Translations under genes and position numbers: made by a program
Part shown: positions 5,918 through 12,900 of the stretch, in pieces
Numbering within the stretch: the stretch's first letter is position 1
Layout: each line of letters starts with the position of its first letter
The notes under the pieces: model-generated
What the model was told of the DNA's origin: nothing
The model's database searches: none
Seen by the model: only the letters and a program-made list of their open reading frames with translations
From: an uncultured Spirochaetota bacterium
Lineage (GTDB): Bacteria; Spirochaetota; B62-G9; DRHN01
Assembly: GCA_964433545.1 (NCBI GenBank)
Contig: CAYSRJ010000003.1
Span: forward strand, 64,904-128,903
Direction of reading: 5' to 3'
DNA: 64,000 nucleotides

Positions 5918-6925
5918 TCAATTTTTCATGCTCGAATCGATCACTTTATCAAGCTTTTCGAGGAATTCCCTCTCTGAAAGCTCATACTTATTTATAAACT
6001 GCATGGTACCTATCTGCAGTTTCATACCCTCGGTCAAATTGGTTTTTTTGATAAACACGACCAGTATGTTCTTGTTTTCAGTAAAGGCAAGATTAATTTC
6101 GTTTCTCACGTTCCGCGACATCGCCGCATGAGGACTCATAAGAACGAGAAATTGGGTACAGTTGACAATAGCTTTCCCGACGATCTCGGGCCATTCATTT
6201 CCAGGCTCTATCCCCTCATCATACCATATTCGGTAGCGCTTCCTGTGAAGTTTTTTTATGATGCTGAAGACCGCTTTCATATCCTCATGTGCGTAGCTTG
6301 TAAAAAGGTATGAACGCACTCCATGATAAGCCTCAAAAGGCGGCTTGATCGGCGGCGCATGTCCCGTTCCTTTACTCTTTAAGGGTGATGTCTTCCTGGC
6401 GGGCTTTTTTGGAGCAGAGGTTTTTGCGGATACCTTTAGAGACGATTCCCGGTCCTTTTTCGCTGGTGATTTCTTTGCAGAGATCTTTTTTTGCACCTTT
6501 TTATCAGAGGTTTTAATTGCTGCTATTTTTTTTGCCGTGGATGTCTTTTTTGTCCCGGTACCCTTTTTTGCAGAAGCCCTGGTTGAAAGATCTTTCGAAG
6601 CAGTCGATCCGCCTTTCTTTGCCGCGGTTTTCTTCGTTCGTGATTTCGAAACAGCAGCAGGGGACGCCTTTCTTCCCGATAGTCCGGCCGAGGCTTTTAT
6701 CTTTGACCGGGCTTTTGATTTCGGTGTTTTTACTGATGCCGCAGTTTTTACTGCTGCCGTTTTATTTGAGCTCTTCGTTGCGGATTTTTTTGCAGAAGAT
6801 GTCAAGGTTTTTCCTGTCGACTTTGCGGCTTTTTTACCGGGTGCCCGTGAGGCAGATTTCAAATTCTGCTTCTTTTTAGCTGGAGTCCGGCTTTTTCTTG
6901 TCGCCTTCTTACTTCTCATGAACAT
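5918..6925 (-). CDS. TIR-domain protein with about 200-aa histone-H1-like Lys/Ala/Ser/Thr-rich N-terminal tail
   Basis: The C-terminal roughly 135 aa (SYLFTSYAHEDMKAVFSIIKKLHRKRYRIWYDEGIEPGNEWPEIVGKAIVNCTQFLVLMSPHAAMSRNVRNEINLAF...) fit the bacterial TIR fold: the conserved FISY-hED motif, then W-D, then the FLVLLSP-S motif. The N-terminus is low-complexity KKAAK/KTSAK repeats. Start chosen at the ATG 8 nt after GGGGAGAT (MFMRSKK); the track ORF extends to 7045. Confidence 0.8.
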   Translation of the reverse strand: MFMRSKKATRKSRTPAKKKQNLKSASRAPGKKAAKSTGKTLTSSAKKSATKSSNKTAAVKTAASVKTPKSKARSKIKASAGLSGRKASPAAVSKSRTKKTAAKKGGSTASKDLSTRASAKKGTGTKKTSTAKKIAAIKTSDKKVQKKISAKKSPAKKDRESSLKVSAKTSAPKKPARKTSPLKSKGTGHAPPIKPPFEAYHGVRSYLFTSYAHEDMKAVFSIIKKLHRKRYRIWYDEGIEPGNEWPEIVGKAIVNCTQFLVLMSPHAAMSRNVRNEINLAFTENKNILVVFIKKTNLTEGMKLQIGTMQFINKYELSEREFLEKLDKVIDSSMKN

Positions 6926-6957
6926 AGTCATATCTCCCCTGTACAAATGTATCCGAT

Positions 6958-9084
6958 CTATCCGATTTCGTTCCTCCGCTTGACGAGGTATATGGGATAG
7001 GTGCCAAACTTTTTCGGCAGAACAATAACACCAACGTATATGCACTCCAGCAGGTTTTGACTGTGTGATACAAGCAGTGACGCAAACTGCTCACTTGCAT
7101 ACACGTTTCCCGGGTTCGTTATCGGCTCAATACGCGCTGCTCTGTTTACATGACGGCCGAAATAGTTCATCTTTTTTAATATCGGCTCTTTTGCCCCAAA
7201 AACTGGACCGACATGCAGTCCTATCCGTATTTTCAGATCTTCAAAGAGGTACAGGCTCTTCCAGTCCTTTTTTTTCAATAAATCGCGGAGCTCGAGTGCA
7301 TATTCTGCTGCAGAAATAAGATCGTTGTATACGAAGTACAGAGCATCCCCCCAAATATTTTTAAAGATAGGCTTATGCTTCGTATTTTTCAGGCTTTGAG
7401 CGATGGCCCCAAGATAATTTTTTATAAAGAAGGGGATCTGCTCCTCTTTCAATGCACTGAACCCGGCAAGATCCGCAAACAACATTGCCTTCACCGAACG
7501 GTTCACATCCTTGACAGTGTCAGTCAGTTTAACAGGCGGAGCAGGAGAATGCAGTGTATCCGAAACAGATCCTTCGGCATTCATTTGACCCGTTTCCCCT
7601 TCTTCCGACGTACGTCTGTTGTCGGGAGAATCTGTTTCAAGTAATACGTTCGGGGATGGACCACTATCAGACACACTGCCGCTGTCCGGCATTCCAGTGT
7701 CCTCTATATCGTTACCCAGCAAAACGCCACGATGGGTTTTTCTTTCAGCACGCTGTTTTGAACGATTTTTACTAATCCTGTTAATATCAATGATCTCAAT
7801 AGGATATTTCTTATCTTCCCATGTTGTAATGAAATCGTACGTTCCTCCCGTCTTTCTACTCCCCTTGCCGTCCCACACTGCAATGAGAACGGACTCTGTT
7901 TCCAGAAGTTCGCTTCTTAAAAGTGTTTTTCCCATAATAATTCTATTCGCGTAATCGAACAGGAGGTCGTCACCAGAGTACTTTCCCTCCGTCGCCATGA
8001 GGACTGTGCTTCGTTTCAGGACTCGCTGTACTCGTTCAACCCATGCTCTGCCGGCAAACTCAACACTCGCATGTATAAAATCCTCTAATACGAAAGGAAG
8101 GATAATATTTGTTTCTGCTTTTCGTGTCTGCATGCACTCTAAAAAGAGTGTATCCGAACCGCAGGCCGCAGATGAGTAGCCTATTCCGGGATTGACACGT
8201 TCAAGCACATCACAAACCGCATTTTTTACATCTTCCTCGATGTCCGGCGGAAAACGGGAAGGCCTTCTTCCGGGTTTATCGATCATATGACCGGTAAAGG
8301 CGACAACAGGCGGCACCTTTAAAAGGGCAAATATTTCTTCTTCAATGTCGATATAATTCTTAAGCAGGCCCATCTGCTTGCGCGTGCTCGCCAGGTATGA
8401 AAAATTCTTCCCGCTGATACGCTGTGCGAATTTTAAGTACTGCAGGGCCTTCTCTGAATCTCCAAGAAGCAGAAGTCCCTCTCCCATTGTCGCGAGTATC
8501 CAGTAGTCACGTTTTTCACCCGCACTCATTCGATCCAGGCATATTTTCAACACCATCTTTGCGAGTCTGCCGGCATTTTCTCTTTCACCGAGCATAAGGC
8601 TCATACTCGCAGCATTTATTCCCGAATAGTAGCCTCTGCTCTTATTGAACGCCTTTAGATAGAAATTTTTTGATTTCTCGAGGTACGTGGTGTCACCCTG
8701 TGCCCCTCCTGAAATCACCCACATATCCTTGTACACCCGGCCCAGGATACCGAGCGTTTCTTCATCAAAATGGCCCTTTTTAACCAGGCCGGTGAGTATT
8801 TGCCGTGCCCTGTTTAAAAACCCGCATTTAATGAGCGAAAGGGCGTACAACTGTGTCAATCGTAGGTTTTCCGGAAAATATTCGAGCCCTTCCTTGAGAA
8901 CATCATGCGCAAACATCGACTGCCCGAGTTTGTCCGCGGTTTCACCGAGCCGAATGTAGAAGTGTGGCTGAGAGCTCCATGTAGAGTCGTCCTTGGAGAC
9001 CCAGAGCTCATGTATGACGTTTTCTATGTCTTCGGACTTTGAATCGAGATAGGTATTGAATTTTTTTATGCTTTTCTCTTCCAT
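6958..9084 (-). CDS. multidomain TPR-repeat + SLOG (LOG/DprA-like Rossmannoid) + class III adenylyl/guanylyl-type nucleotidyl cyclase protein
   Basis: C-terminus MLFADLAGFSAL ... WGDALYFVY ... IRIGLHVGPV ... GRHVNRAARIE carries class III cyclase catalytic motifs. The middle region VVAFTGH..GIGYSSAACGSDTLFLECM..ILPF..VLMATEGKYSGDD..LIAVWDGKGSRKTGGTYDFITTW matches the LOG/DprA (SLOG) pattern. The N-terminal third is TPR-like helical repeats, followed by an S/D/G/P-rich linker. Start chosen at ATG MEEKSIKK after GGGGAA; the track ORF begins at a TTG at 9198. Confidence 0.8.
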   Translation of the reverse strand: MEEKSIKKFNTYLDSKSEDIENVIHELWVSKDDSTWSSQPHFYIRLGETADKLGQSMFAHDVLKEGLEYFPENLRLTQLYALSLIKCGFLNRARQILTGLVKKGHFDEETLGILGRVYKDMWVISGGAQGDTTYLEKSKNFYLKAFNKSRGYYSGINAASMSLMLGERENAGRLAKMVLKICLDRMSAGEKRDYWILATMGEGLLLLGDSEKALQYLKFAQRISGKNFSYLASTRKQMGLLKNYIDIEEEIFALLKVPPVVAFTGHMIDKPGRRPSRFPPDIEEDVKNAVCDVLERVNPGIGYSSAACGSDTLFLECMQTRKAETNIILPFVLEDFIHASVEFAGRAWVERVQRVLKRSTVLMATEGKYSGDDLLFDYANRIIMGKTLLRSELLETESVLIAVWDGKGSRKTGGTYDFITTWEDKKYPIEIIDINRISKNRSKQRAERKTHRGVLLGNDIEDTGMPDSGSVSDSGPSPNVLLETDSPDNRRTSEEGETGQMNAEGSVSDTLHSPAPPVKLTDTVKDVNRSVKAMLFADLAGFSALKEEQIPFFIKNYLGAIAQSLKNTKHKPIFKNIWGDALYFVYNDLISAAEYALELRDLLKKKDWKSLYLFEDLKIRIGLHVGPVFGAKEPILKKMNYFGRHVNRAARIEPITNPGNVYASEQFASLLVSHSQNLLECIYVGVIVLPKKFGTYPIYLVKRRNEIG

Positions 9085-9159
9085 GATTTCGTTTCCCCGT
9101 TTGTTATCCCAAATCATAGCACATTTGGAAGAAAGAGTGGGGTTTTTTTGGCATCTATA

Positions 9160-9200
9160 TTCCATTTTATTAATAATATTCTCTAATGGAGAATACAAAC
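9160..9200 (-). promoter_or_regulatory. candidate sigma-70-like promoter with overlapping inverted repeat upstream of the cyclase gene
   Basis: Minus strand reads TTGTAT-17 bp-TATTAA. The spacer contains the inverted repeat ATTCTC-taatgg-AGAAT. Weak consensus match. Confidence 0.25.
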
Positions 9201-9241: not shown

Positions 9242-9811
9242 TCAGGCGATTTCCCCAAACAGAGAAAGTGCACCGTACAGGACCGCATCATCCCACAGAA
9301 TAGCCCTCTCTATTGGTGTATTCGCATGGTTTTTAAAAAAGATCCTGCTCCTCACCCGTTCCCGTATGAGCTCGACAATGTTTGATTTTCCTGCGGTGAG
9401 CCCGCCGCCGATACCGGTGCTCATTGTGATATAGTATACCGATGAACAGTATTTTCCGCCCTCGTACAGGGCCTCTCCGAGGGCTGTGGCATTTGCATCA
9501 TTTTGTATTCGAACGGGCACGGAATACGCACGTTCAAGTGTCGATTTGAGATGAAACCCCTCCCAATCCGGTAAATTCGGCAGGGCGCCAAAAATGCCGT
9601 TATCGATGTTAAGCGGGCCCGGGGCTCCGATTCCAATTGCCTTCAAATTCTTCTGATTATGGCCAATAAACTCGTGTATGAGAAACTTGAGATCATTAAT
9701 AAATATTTCCGGGTTCTTTTTTGTTTTTATTTTTCTACTTGTTAAAAGACTGCCGTCTTCAAAACGACCTATCCATGTCTTTGTTCCGCCTATGTCGATA
9801 CCGACTATCAT
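9242..9811 (-). CDS. ROK/ASKHA-family sugar-kinase-like protein, unusually short (189 aa; C-terminal third with the zinc motif is absent)
   Basis: MIVGIDIGGTKT, GIGAPGPLNIDNG, QNDANATALGE and TGIGGGL are ROK hallmarks. The protein ends about 55 aa after the last motif with no CxCGxxGCxE region. Confidence 0.55.
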   Translation of the reverse strand: MIVGIDIGGTKTWIGRFEDGSLLTSRKIKTKKNPEIFINDLKFLIHEFIGHNQKNLKAIGIGAPGPLNIDNGIFGALPNLPDWEGFHLKSTLERAYSVPVRIQNDANATALGEALYEGGKYCSSVYYITMSTGIGGGLTAGKSNIVELIRERVRSRIFFKNHANTPIERAILWDDAVLYGALSLFGEIA

Positions 9812-10000: not shown

Positions 10001-10888
10001 TTAATCTTTTTTGAAATACCCGTCACCGTACGGGTGCTCCTGTCCGAGGAACTCGCTTTTTGAAGCGCCCAATGTGTGACAGGGAAGAAGGTGCAGTTTT
10101 TTCACACCGATGTCTGCAGCATATTCAGCAATGGCAAAGAGGTCACTTTCATTCATGTTAAAACCGGGAACAACCGGCACCCTGACCGTTACATCCGGTA
10201 TAGTTCGCACCGCAGTACTGAGATTTTTTAGTACCTTTTCGTTTCCGATGCCGGTAAACCGCCTGTGGGTTTCTTTGTCCATGTGCTTGAGGTCGTAAAG
10301 TAGATGATCGATGTATGGAAGAGCCTCTTTGAACGTTTGCGAATCAACGTTGCCGTTTGTCTCGACTGCAGTGCTCAGATGATACTGTGCCGCAAGCCTG
10401 AGAAGCGATATAGCGAAATCCCTTTGAAAAAGAGGCTCTCCGCCTGAAACGGTGACTCCCCCGGCTCCACGACAGAATACCCTGTCCAAGAGCATCTCCT
10501 CCATCACGGCACCTGCGGTTATCTCTCTACCCACTATTCGAATGACCTCCGGAAAGCACACTTTCGCACACTCGAGACAGCTGCTGCATGCATCCCGGTC
10601 GATTTCCACCGCATTGGACGACGGATGCTTCTTTATCGCGCCTTCAGGGCAGATGTCGATACAATCGTACTCTCCGATGCACCGGGCGGGGTTGTACATT
10701 ATTTAAGGCGCATGCCCGATACCCTCCGGGTTTTCGCACCAGGGGCAGTGCATGTTGCACCCCTTGAGAAATACTATTGTCCGTATACCTGGGCTGTCGT
10801 GCACCGCGTAGTGCTGGATATCGAATACCACACCGGTGATTGATTCCAGGTCCTTCATCATGAATATGAACGATCCTCTCTGATGCAA
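10001..10888 (-). pseudogene. glycyl-radical-enzyme activating enzyme (radical SAM with two ferredoxin-like 4Fe-4S inserts), interrupted by an in-frame TAA
   Basis: The N-terminal piece (10703..10888) has [13 protein letters not shown] (CxxxCxxC). In-frame TAA lies at 10700-10702. The reading frame then continues CIGEYDCIDICPEGAI ... CSSCLECAKVC ... GGVTVSGGEPL (10001..10699). Both pieces are in the same frame. Confidence 0.65.
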
Positions 10889-11014
10889 AATATTTTGAAC
10901 TGCTGCTACTCAAAAATAACGAACACCGTAATTTTCATACCCTCTTATGCTCTAACATTGAGATGTACAGCTTATACCACCGCTGAATAACATATCCGGC
11001 GCCTCAAATTGAAA

Positions 11015-11082: not shown

Positions 11083-12900
11083 TTAAACGGTATGCTCCGT
11101 CCTCGCGATAATATCGTCCTGCAGGGCCTCGTTCAGATCCACGAAAAACGCCGAATATCCCGCCACCCTTACCACCAGGTCCCTGTATTCATCCGGCCTT
11201 TCCTTTGCCTCTCTTAAAGTGTCCGCAGACACGACATTGAGCTGCAGATGTATATTCTTTAGCGTTATGAATCCCCTGATCAGGTCTGAAAACCTCGCAA
11301 GCCCCCGTCACCTTCAAGGGCCGAAGGATGAAACTTGAGGTTGAGCAAAGCGCCGTTTGAAGCCCTGATCTGGTCTATCCTGCTCACCGATTGCAGCACG
11401 GCAAGCGGCCCCTTTCTGTCCCTTCCTCTCACGGGAGACAGACCGCCGTCTGCAAGCGGTTCACCTGAAAGCCTGCCATCTGGTGTGGCGCCTACAGCCA
11501 AACCGAGCGGCACATGCGCGGACACGGTGTACAGTCCCGGCTGAAACTTCCCGCCCCTCTGGTTTTCATACTTCTCCACTTCACGGCTGTACAAATTCGA
11601 CCACTGGTAAGCGATTTCGTCGACTTCCGGAATATTGTTCCCGAATTTTGGAATCTTGTTCAGAATACGGTACCGGAGCATCTCATGCCTCTGAAAATTC
11701 CTGTCCAGTATATCGATCATTCTCGAGTATTCGATCTGTTTTTCTTCAAAGACCACCCTTTTTACGGAAAAAAGCGAATCGGCAATGTTCGCTACGCCCA
11801 CAGCCTGGGGGCCGGTAAAGTTGTAGAAGGCGCCACCGCCTGAAATGTCGATACCCTTTTCTAGGCAGTTGTCCACAAGTACCGAAAGAAACGGGGTCGG
11901 AAGCAGTGTATGGTGCGCAACGTCCACCGTATTACAGCCCTTCGCCATTTTTTCCACATATTTTTTGAGGTTATCCTCCATGGCATGCTCGAGAGAAGAA
12001 TAATCCCTATACGTTTTCTGCCGCATACTCACCTCTAACAGGCGGGCCGTATTGAACAGGGCAGCATCTTAAGGTATCACGAAGAAAAAAGGGGGAAAGC
12101 ACCTGGTCGAGCCTTCCCGGTGAAAACGAACTGCCGACGGACTCCAGATGAAGAATTACGAACAAAAACCAGAGCATCTGTACCGCTTCGATAAAGGTGT
12201 TGGGGGGCGAAGATGTAAGCTTTTCGCACCGTTCGGAAAACTCCTTTAGCCCCTTCCTGGAAGCCTCGTCCCTGTATCTCATAATAAATTTTGATGCCGC
12301 GCGGAGGGTGATGAGCACTGCATCATAGAAACCATGCATTTCAGGTTTATCGGTGCTCATTCTGTACTTCTGAACCTCGTCTGTCAGTCCGCCGATGCCC
12401 TTTGTAAGCCACTTCTCCGTATCGGGGATTATGTGACCCTGGGAGTGTGTCGTCTGGTTGAGGGTGTAAATACCCTTTTCAACCGGGTCCATGACATCGG
12501 TCGAAAGAGCACCAAGCAGATAATCCTTCAATGTCTTTCCCCTGAAAAAGGGAAGGACTTTTTCTCTCAACACCTGTTTATCTTCTGCCGTAATCTCGAA
12601 GGGTTCCTGCTCACGTATGCCGATCGTATCGAGCTCTTTTTCAAGCCAGTCTACAGCACCCTCAACAGCAGGCACACCCATCCTCGGAAAAACCGTTCTT
12701 CCGCCAATGATGAGCTCATCCTCACCCACTGCAATGGGTATGTTTTCAAGTATAGTTTCAAGCGCCCTTGCGCGCCTCAGAATAACGGGTTCCCCCTCCG
12801 TTTCGCTGTAGCTCTTCAAATAGTACAGACTCCTATCGAGGGATATACGCCGGTGTGTGTCCAGCACCCGGTCTTTCAGTTTCTTGATGCGCGGGGACAA
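11083..12900 (-). pseudogene. glycyl radical enzyme (PFL2 / glycerol-dehydratase-like family), frameshifted and probably internally deleted
   Basis: Three pieces in three frames. The N-terminal 297 aa (12007..12900) read MSPRIKKLKDRVL...WFLF..GRLDQ. The middle 250 aa (11280..12032) read ..GGGAFYN..GATPDGR..SNGALLNLKF. The C-terminal roughly 65 aa (11083..11281) read RVAGYSAFFVDLNEALQDDIIARTEHTV*, the glycine-radical motif. Total is about 610 aa, against about 750-850 aa for intact family members. Confidence 0.7.

Follow-up and report, generated by a model that had tools for sequence, protein, structure and literature searches.

A stretch of 64,000 nucleotides from an uncultured Spirochaetota bacterium (contig CAYSRJ010000003.1, positions 64,904 to 128,903; hereafter the window) carries on its minus strand a gene for a multidomain protein, the host protein, in which a TPR-S region, a SLOG domain and a class III nucleotide cyclase follow one another, and next to it a gene for a TIR protein. 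The middle domain of the host protein, a Rossmannoid module of the type that binds small nucleotides, is a member of the SLOG superfamily, in its YpsA clade, and is divergent enough to evade every curated model. For the gene pair we propose a Thoeris-like two-gene module, to which we give about an even chance: a ligand derived from nicotinamide adenine dinucleotide (NAD) and made by the TIR enzyme would bind the TPR-S/SLOG unit and turn on the cyclase. The parts of the host gene are listed below; residues are numbered throughout in the frame of 746 amino acids (aa) of the mechanical open reading frame (ORF) call.

6958..9084, minus strand: gene for the TPR-S/SLOG/class III cyclase protein, 708 aa from the ATG at 9084.
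8362..9081, minus strand: all-helical N-terminal TPR-S scaffold, aa 40-279, from Pfam and AlphaFold2 (AF2).
8602-8895, minus strand: Pfam TPR-S core, aa 102-199.
7747..8313, minus strand: YpsA-like SLOG domain, aa 296-484, from translation, AF2, Foldseek, hhalign and conservation.
7519..7746, minus strand: linker rich in Ser, Asp, Glu and Pro, aa 485-560 (about 76 aa), between the SLOG domain and the cyclase.
6961..7512, minus strand: class III nucleotidyl cyclase domain, aa 563-746, from PF00211 and mapping onto soluble guanylate cyclase (sGC) 3et6.

A preliminary description of the window had placed, by eye, a LOG/DprA-like SLOG domain between TPR repeats and a cyclase. The peptide quoted there is the exact translation of 7758-8313 on the minus strand, which corresponds to aa 296-480 of the ORF 6958..9198. 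No match to aa 296-480 was found when the whole protein was scanned with Pfam, PADLOC and NCBIfam. None of 40 members of the family matched PF06908 or any Pfam SLOG model at E≤10, chance matches only being obtained, and a hidden Markov model (HMM) of their alignment gave one chance match against all PDB sequences.

The fold of the domain was predicted with AF2 from the 40-member alignment. The model (predicted local distance difference test, pLDDT, 93.5; predicted template modelling score, pTM, 0.90) showed alternating strands and helices in a Rossmannoid arrangement. When the PDB was searched with Foldseek, the best match was YpsA (2nx2), with an E value of 1e-6, template modelling (TM) scores of 0.67/0.73 and a root-mean-square deviation of 3.6 Å, and the 13 top matches were all SLOG proteins (YpsA, DprA, ShosA, Moco carrier protein and LOG). 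YpsA was followed by DprA (5mll, 3uqz, 4ljk), ShosA (8zva), Moco carrier protein (2iz6/7) and type-II LOG (5zi9), and lower-ranked matches within the superfamily included the N-terminal domain of TRPM2 (MHR; 8src) and TM1055 (1rcu). The BFVD library of viral structures returned DprA-like, 'cpYpsA-related SLOG' and DUF2493 proteins. The preliminary description had left room for a non-Rossmannoid fold or for another family such as TIR-like or STAND proteins; the predicted fold is Rossmannoid and the searches led to SLOG members. A TIR-like or STAND fold was rejected, as neither was among the structure or profile matches.

As a comparison family, PF06908 relatives of YoqJ, the YpsA paralogue of phage SPbeta, were collected and 16 of them were aligned. 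Comparison of the 40-member SLOG alignment with this YpsA/YoqJ alignment by hhalign gave a probability of 95.7% (E 8.5e-9) over 163 columns, with four motifs in register: F-T-G-H, G-x-D, P-F and aVxDG..GGT. Against the single YoqJ sequence the probability was 1.5%, and significance came only with the family alignment. That figure, together with the absence of Pfam, NCBIfam or PDB sequence-profile matches even at E≤10, is what could be said for a merely generic Rossmann-like similarity, without homology to SLOG proteins. We consider such a coincidence extremely improbable, given the profile-profile result with all four motifs aligned and the fact that the top structural matches in two libraries, PDB and BFVD, were SLOG proteins only.

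The position-by-position conservation was examined on genomic homologues. A scan of 185,579 species genomes, one per species, yielded at least 572 loci; all locus-level counts below refer to 80 fetched loci, of which 75 hold complete host proteins. These 75 homologues share about 31-85% identity. The motifs of the SLOG domain are:

F301-x-G303-H304-M-x-D307...R315-F316-P317, on the strand 1 side.
S343-A-A-C346-G347-x-D349-x-x-F352-x-E354.
L367-P368-F; W386-x-x-R389; G423; V441-W-D443...G451-G452-T453...W460.

The 40 diverse members conserve the same elements, namely GHMxD..RFP after strand 1, S-A-A-C-G-x-D-x-x-F-x-E, LPF, W..R and VWD...GGT...W. Thirteen positions (G303, D307, F316, A345, C346, G347, D349, F352, E354, P368, W386, R389 and G423) do not vary among the homologues (75/75); H304 occurs in 72/75, and the GGT residues in 71/75 (G451), 74/75 (G452) and 59/75 (T453). 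Because so many positions are identical across proteins of such different overall identity, the pattern points to one defined ligand or substrate. The YpsA clade has as its signature a GxD/E at the start of helix 2, a predicted substrate-binding motif (PMC6459960); in the window family G347-x-D349 is invariant (75/75) and aligns with the G-x-D of YoqJ-like proteins. An aromatic residue is conserved in the first loop after strand 1 of the YpsA family (PMC6459960); in this loop the window family has His304 in F-x-G-H, which may or may not stand for the aromatic residue of YpsA proper, and the YoqJ-like branch has F-T-G-H.

The SLOG part of the earlier assignment is therefore borne out by fold and hhalign, and the clade is corrected: TM scores, the GxD signature and the missing catalytic Glu indicate YpsA and not LOG/DprA. 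The motifs picked by eye fall on real elements, VVAFTGH on strand 1 and its loop, SAACGSD on the Gly-rich loop, ILPF on strand 3 and AVWDG...GGT on a PGGxGT-type loop; their pairing with LOG motifs breaks down at the Glu of PGGxGTxxE, which the window family does not conserve (at T+3, position 456, F, T or A is found, and at T+2, position 455, Asp occurs in only 28/75). A LOG-type hydrolase was rejected on this ground and for lack of a Pfam match (PF03641). DprA was rejected as well: no match to PF02481 was found, the flanking regions are TPR-S and cyclase, and the TM scores are 0.42-0.46 for DprA alone (0.33-0.46 for LOG and DprA together). Profile searches of the 40 members with the Pfam LOG and DprA models thus returned nothing at E≤10, and it was the YpsA/YoqJ profile that gave the match.

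In a Pfam scan of the host protein, TPR-S (PF20308) matched with 4.1e-20 and 72.7 bits (gathering cut-off 27.6) and MAP3K_TRAF_bd (PF13281) with 1.1e-15 and 58 bits (cut-off 24.1), the two matches together spanning aa 102-284; on the other side, Guanylate_cyc (PF00211) matched aa 571-711 with 9.2e-13 and 48.6 bits (cut-off 21.9). An AF2 model of TPR-S plus SLOG (aa 39-485; pLDDT 89.8, pTM 0.84), helical through model residue 241, suggests that the two pack as one rigid unit. No known structure matched this arrangement, the fold search of the two-domain model giving generic TPR proteins (OGT, SPY). The linker towards the cyclase is mostly an insertion (aa 482-551), which falls in gap columns in most of the 75 aligned homologues. 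The mechanical ORF call (6958..9198, minus strand) starts at a TTG at 9198 and gives 746 aa. Upstream of the ATG at 9084 lies a purine-rich stretch, and the product from this codon, MEEKSIKKF, aligns with the N-terminus of the homologue P0004; because both agree, the true start is likely the ATG at 9084, giving a 708-aa protein.

The same architecture is widespread. When 1.84 billion representative proteins were scanned by HMMER with aa 290-484 as the query, 2,942 clusters (counted at 50% identity) were obtained at E≤1e-3, of which 237 reached E≤1e-30. The genomic loci are distributed over Spirochaetota, Pseudomonadota, Cyanobacteria, Verrucomicrobiota, Acidobacteriota, Bacteroidota and other phyla. 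In 75/75 complete homologues the order TPR-S-like N-terminus, SLOG, cyclase is kept, and TPR-S with SLOG domain and cyclase is also the main architecture among the representative matches. In other proteins the SLOG domain and cyclase are combined with an N-terminal CHAT, with GAF and TPR-S, or with a C-terminal HATPase_c_2, and RyR with TPR-S and SLOG occurs in forms with and without the cyclase. In P0078, SLOG and cyclase are followed by a C-terminal TIR match (E 6e-4; 20.7 bits, against a gathering cut-off of 28 bits), and one metagenomic locus with split genes retains the order TPR-S, SLOG, cyclase, TIR. Stand-alone SLOG proteins were rejected as an independent architecture, as they sit in split TPR-S/SLOG/cyclase/TIR loci or beside a TPR-S fragment. 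The split locus L082 (1-3734, minus strand) also holds a second TIR_2 protein of 508 aa and an nSTAND1 NTPase on the opposite strand, which hints that it belongs to a larger conflict-system island. Current annotation of family members goes no further than 'TRAFs-binding domain-containing' or 'adenylate cyclase'.

The roles of cyclase residues were mapped through a HMMER alignment to sGC 3et6. The metal-binding Asp residues D576 and D618 are each found in 72/75 homologues. Of the transition-state residues, both N685 and R689 are present in the window protein; across the family R689 is kept in 70/75 and N685 in only 32/75. As the metal-binding residues and R689 are conserved and N685 is present here, the cyclase is likely active. 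A class III cyclase has activity only in the dimeric state, and its active sites lie where the two chains meet. The base is specified by a Lys/Asp pair in adenylyl cyclases and by a Glu/Cys pair in guanylyl cyclases. In the alignment to 3et6 neither canonical pair is found in the window cyclase, where Asn614 (63/75) and Asn678 (45/75) stand opposite the Glu and Cys of sGC:

7355-7357, minus strand: codon of the base-specifying residue 614.
7163-7165, minus strand: codon of the base-specifying residue 678.

Because of this Asn/Asn combination, the product is unpredictable from the sequence and may be non-canonical. PADLOC gave a weak match of the cyclase to PycC (2.8e-5, 21 bits).

The second gene of the pair follows immediately:

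5918..6931, minus strand: TIR partner gene, 26 nucleotides (nt) downstream of the host stop codon, with the ribosome-binding site aggggaga.
6344-6931, minus strand: Lys-rich low-complexity tail, N-terminal, 196 aa, 26% Lys.
5918-6343, minus strand: TIR domain, C-terminal, TIR_2 8.7e-16, with the catalytic Glu in ..SRNVRNEINLA...

The catalytic Glu is present in 18/18 aligned partner TIRs. The tail of the window partner is rich in K, S, A and T and resembles histone H1 and HC2; orthologues in other Spirochaetota carry tails of 120-260 aa with 29-50% Lys+Arg and conserve a KPPIKPP[IF]E junction before the TIR domain. Nucleic acid, or some other polyanion, is a possible binding partner of such a polycationic tail, which may in this way serve as a trigger sensor. 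No cyclic-nucleotide-binding domain was found in the window TIR protein or in ten partner proteins scanned singly, PADLOC was uninformative on partner proteins, and no toxic domain was found with Pfam or PADLOC in the window pair, of which the output domain is the cyclase.

Linkage to TIR genes recurs in the family. Host and TIR genes occur together in 7/7 of the closest Spirochaetota loci (L001-L007); L001 is syntenic with the window across the whole neighbourhood, and L002-L007 share only the pair, with different flanks. Among co-directional genes lying at most 200 nt downstream of the host gene (n=23), 11 encode TIR_2 and 4 DUF4062 proteins, and L001 and L007 add two more; DUF4062 we take to be TIR-like, by its Pfam clan. 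With an iterated TIR profile (E<1e-7, about 10 kb on each side), a TIR ORF was detected in 31/80 loci, within 300 nt of the host gene in 17 of them and within 3 kb in 29. Elsewhere the partners are TIR-TPR arrays, TIR-WD40 arrays, DUF4062-NACHT and short TIR proteins. Upstream neighbours are mixed (GGDEF, nSTAND1, LSDAT_prok, CHAT and housekeeping genes). In Lysobacterales and relatives (L011, L028, L031, L035, L069, L073, L077), the TIR gene, for a protein of about 675-695 aa, lies 0.6-1.4 kb upstream of the SLOG-cyclase gene in divergent orientation, and not downstream on its strand.

In the immediate surroundings of the window pair, identity to L001 is 80% for the host protein and 62% for the TIR protein; on one side, transport and metabolic genes are 85-94% identical, and on the other, OmpA, PFL fragments, ROK and rSAM activase only 67-77%. 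The GC content of the two genes (5918-9084) is slightly low, 45-48% against about 49-52% in the flanking transport and metabolic genes. On the minus strand at 9242-9811, 10001-10913 and 11280-12900, PFL is split into two ORFs, the activase into two ORFs, and ROK has 189 aa; the L001 counterparts are intact, namely a single glycyl-radical (PFL-like) enzyme of 764 aa, an activase of 350 aa and a ROK kinase of 328 aa. The split or truncated genes of the window are either pseudogenes or assembly frameshift errors. Both the SLOG-cyclase gene and the TIR gene, unlike these neighbours, are intact.

Computation has shown here to which fold and family the domain belongs, that the architecture is conserved, that cyclase and TIR have intact catalytic residues, and that the family is linked to TIR genes. 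What the ligand is, that the SLOG domain binds it rather than cleaving it, which way the signal runs and that it serves immunity are inferred, and for these we propose the following scheme. Upon some trigger, the TIR enzyme would turn NAD+ into a signal derived from ADP-ribose. The rigid TPR-S/SLOG unit would bind this signal in a pocket lined by the invariant GHMxD, ACGxD..E and W..R motifs. Ligand-driven pairing or re-orientation of two chains would then assemble the cyclase dimer, and the cyclic mononucleotide released would act on receptors whose genes lie at other sites of the genome.

That a ligand gates the cyclase, as raised in the preliminary description from the position of the SLOG domain, is plausible, the gating itself being an inference. 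The idea is strengthened because the repeats turn out to be a TPR-S sensor scaffold, because a TIR gene lies 26 nt downstream, and because TIR or TIR-like genes recur beside homologues. TPR-S was predicted by Burroughs and Aravind in 2020 to sense NAD+-derived TIR signals, as their work is described in 10.1101/2023.05.26.542521 and 10.64898/2025.12.03.692087. ThsI, the effector of type VIII Thoeris, in which a CMP-hydrolase is joined to that TPR, is activated by canonical cyclic ADP-ribose (cADPR) made by a TIR enzyme, and in type I Thoeris it is the SLOG domain of ThsA that recognises 3'cADPR (10.64898/2025.12.03.692087). As a more ambitious extension, we put forward only tentatively, as falling well short of an even chance, a two-tier relay in bacterial immunity: a TIR signal would be received by TPR-S/SLOG and converted into a cyclic mononucleotide for unlinked effectors or regulators. 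In this relay, held with the same reserve, the base specificity set by Asn/Asn would be non-canonical, and Thoeris-type signalling would be coupled with that of the Pycsar/cAMP type.

Several observations weigh against the proposed module. The invariant Cys346, Asp307, Asp349, Glu354 and Arg389, with His304 in 72/75, could just as well form the active site of an enzyme. Among the 50 best structural matches found by Foldseek in the PDB, ThsA with its SLOG domain does not appear. The pTM of the two-domain model is only an indirect sign of domain packing. The operon holds no receptor for cyclic nucleotides and no killing effector, so that the output of the cyclase has no visible target. Less than half of the 80 loci have a TIR gene nearby, yet the pocket residues are invariant in all, so that a common metabolite, and not a TIR product, may be what binds there. 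Finally, the window pair lies amid housekeeping genes, in a neighbourhood that is syntenic in a related genome, without an obvious defence island.

These points lead to other explanations. The SLOG domain could be an enzyme and not a sensor, a nucleotide N-glycosidase or a processing enzyme by which the signal is made, converted or destroyed, so that the protein would have two catalytic centres; with the same modest likelihood, it might for example trim what the TIR enzyme or the cyclase produces. The superfamily does contain true hydrolases, LOG among them, the polar residues D307, C346, D349, E354 and R389 (75/75) and H304 (72/75) are unusually well conserved, and in BcTpr, a related DrHyd-TPR-S protein, the domain joined to TPR-S has catalytic activity of its own (10.1101/2023.05.26.542521). 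We nevertheless consider an enzymatic role unlikely, since the catalytic Glu of LOG is not conserved at positions 455 and 456, no catalysis is reported for any YpsA-clade protein in the literature covered, and ThsA, the best-characterised SLOG domain of a conflict system, is a non-catalytic sensor (10.64898/2025.12.03.692087). The signal could also run in the opposite direction, as in Pycsar: TPR-S/SLOG would sense infection or a metabolite, the cyclase would make the primary signal, and the TIR protein would be an effector that depletes NAD+. The gene order, cyclase then TIR, resembles that of Pycsar operons with TIR effectors, an architecture reportedly described by Tal et al. in 2021. The cyclase does match PycC in PADLOC (2.8e-5), with a score of only 21 bits, and the Thoeris survey discarded TIRs in Pycsar contexts, so that such loci would be unclassified there (10.64898/2025.12.03.692087). 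This direction seems very unlikely to us: the partner TIRs have no cyclic-nucleotide-binding domain and carry modules of sensor type (the Lys-rich tail here; TPR arrays, WD40 arrays and NACHT/STAND elsewhere), and TPR-S, by its link with signals made from NAD+, belongs downstream of the TIR enzyme.

A third explanation does without immunity. The cyclase, producing a cyclic nucleoside monophosphate (cNMP), would track the pool of NAD+/ADP-ribose or of another nucleotide by way of its SLOG/TPR-S module, and the TIR protein would be a housekeeping NAD+ hydrolase. The housekeeping flanks and the synteny with L001 fit this view, as do the more than half of the 80 loci without a nearby TIR gene, the GAF and RyR fusions at the N-terminus of some relatives, and the role of Bacillus subtilis YpsA in cell division and oxidative stress rather than in defence (PMC6459960). 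Where TIR genes occur, they cluster tightly beside the host gene, and both the partners (TIR-WD40, TIR-TPR, DUF4062-NACHT) and the CHAT, nSTAND1 and LSDAT neighbours are of conflict type. Moreover, the window pair is less conserved towards L001 than one of its flanks, the other flank being the less conserved one noted above, and the pair is kept across L002-L007 while the flanks differ. On these grounds we regard purely physiological signalling as quite unlikely.

Among known proteins, the closest relatives of the SLOG domain are YpsA and YoqJ (PF06908, DUF1273; the 'YpsA proper' clade), on the evidence of the best structural match and of hhalign. The motifs in common are F-T-G-H, which follows strand 1, G-x-D, with which helix 2 begins, P-F, which follows strand 3, and aVxDG..GGT. 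A figure legend on the YpsA family names adenylyl/guanylyl cyclase ('A/G_cyclase') among architectures or neighbourhoods (PMC6459960), and a fusion with a cyclase has therefore already been seen by comparative genomics. The differences are that PF06908 detects 0/40 members of the window family, that the latter has additional invariant residues (Cys346, Glu354, Trp386 and Arg389) and a loop before GGT that is 4 residues longer, and that the window SLOG domain is one part of a larger multidomain protein, YpsA and YoqJ being stand-alone proteins. The known phenotype of YpsA, inhibition of cell division, is also unlike the signalling role proposed here. LOG and DprA share the superfamily fold and the order of the Gly-rich loops and are found among the structural matches (5zi9, 1rcu; 5mll, 3uqz, 4ljk); they differ in the low TM scores given above, in the catalytic Glu of LOG, and in the SAM and winged-helix domains that flank DprA and are absent here.

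At the level of the system, a TIR gene with its catalytic Glu stands in one operon with a TPR-S and SLOG protein, as in Thoeris-type modules. Type VIII Thoeris (ThsB with ThsI, CMP-hydrolase/DrHyd-TPR) and the BcTir/BcTpr pair are likewise two-gene modules in which a TIR protein has a TPR-scaffold partner, and BcTpr forms a complex with BcTir (10.1101/2023.05.26.542521). This likeness to ThsI and BcTpr rests on the TPR prediction of Burroughs and Aravind, as it is described in the papers cited, and not on Pfam TPR-S scores. In type VIII Thoeris the output is a nucleotide hydrolase at the N-terminus, whereas here SLOG and a class III cyclase lie C-terminal to TPR-S; moreover, the window pair has no evident activity that kills cells or depletes nucleotides, and its TIR partner bears a polycationic tail. 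In type I Thoeris, ThsA (SIR2-SLOG) likewise joins a SLOG domain to an enzymatic output beside a TIR signal generator, and binding of 3'cADPR to the SLOG domain activates that output (10.64898/2025.12.03.692087; PMC9503650). The output of ThsA is an NADase, and that of the window protein a signalling cyclase with TPR-S as an extra scaffold; the two SLOG domains are also distant, ThsA lying outside the 50 best structural matches and Pfam STALD and other SLOG models giving no match. With Pycsar (PycC and a cNMP-activated effector), the pair shares a class III-type cyclase adjoining a TIR protein and the weak PycC match; it differs in TIR partners without a cNMP-binding domain, in the large N-terminal TPR-S and SLOG region of the cyclase, and in the N/N residues at the base-specifying positions.

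A systematic survey of Thoeris systems lists 29 predicted effector types, including nucleases, phospholipases, hydrolases, transmembrane proteins and domains of unknown function, and in its text and the supplements searched no class III cyclase effector is found, only CBASS and ADP-ribosyl cyclases (10.64898/2025.12.03.692087). The survey's discarding of TIRs in Pycsar contexts may have removed loci like the window pair. The TPR-S/SLOG/cyclase and TIR system is computationally foreshadowed, unmodelled in family databases and experimentally untouched. Its parts have reportedly been catalogued computationally by the Aravind group. As a large unmodelled family with an extremely conserved pocket, the SLOG domain is a well-defined target for ligand discovery and merits a family model of its own. 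If the proposed mechanism is true, the poorly understood YpsA clade would gain a biochemical role that can be tested, and the window pair would provide the first example of a TIR/NAD+-derived signal that is passed on as a cyclic nucleotide and does not itself set off a killing effector. The result would be a cascade in place of a one-step alarm, adding a class with cyclase output to the Thoeris-like systems.

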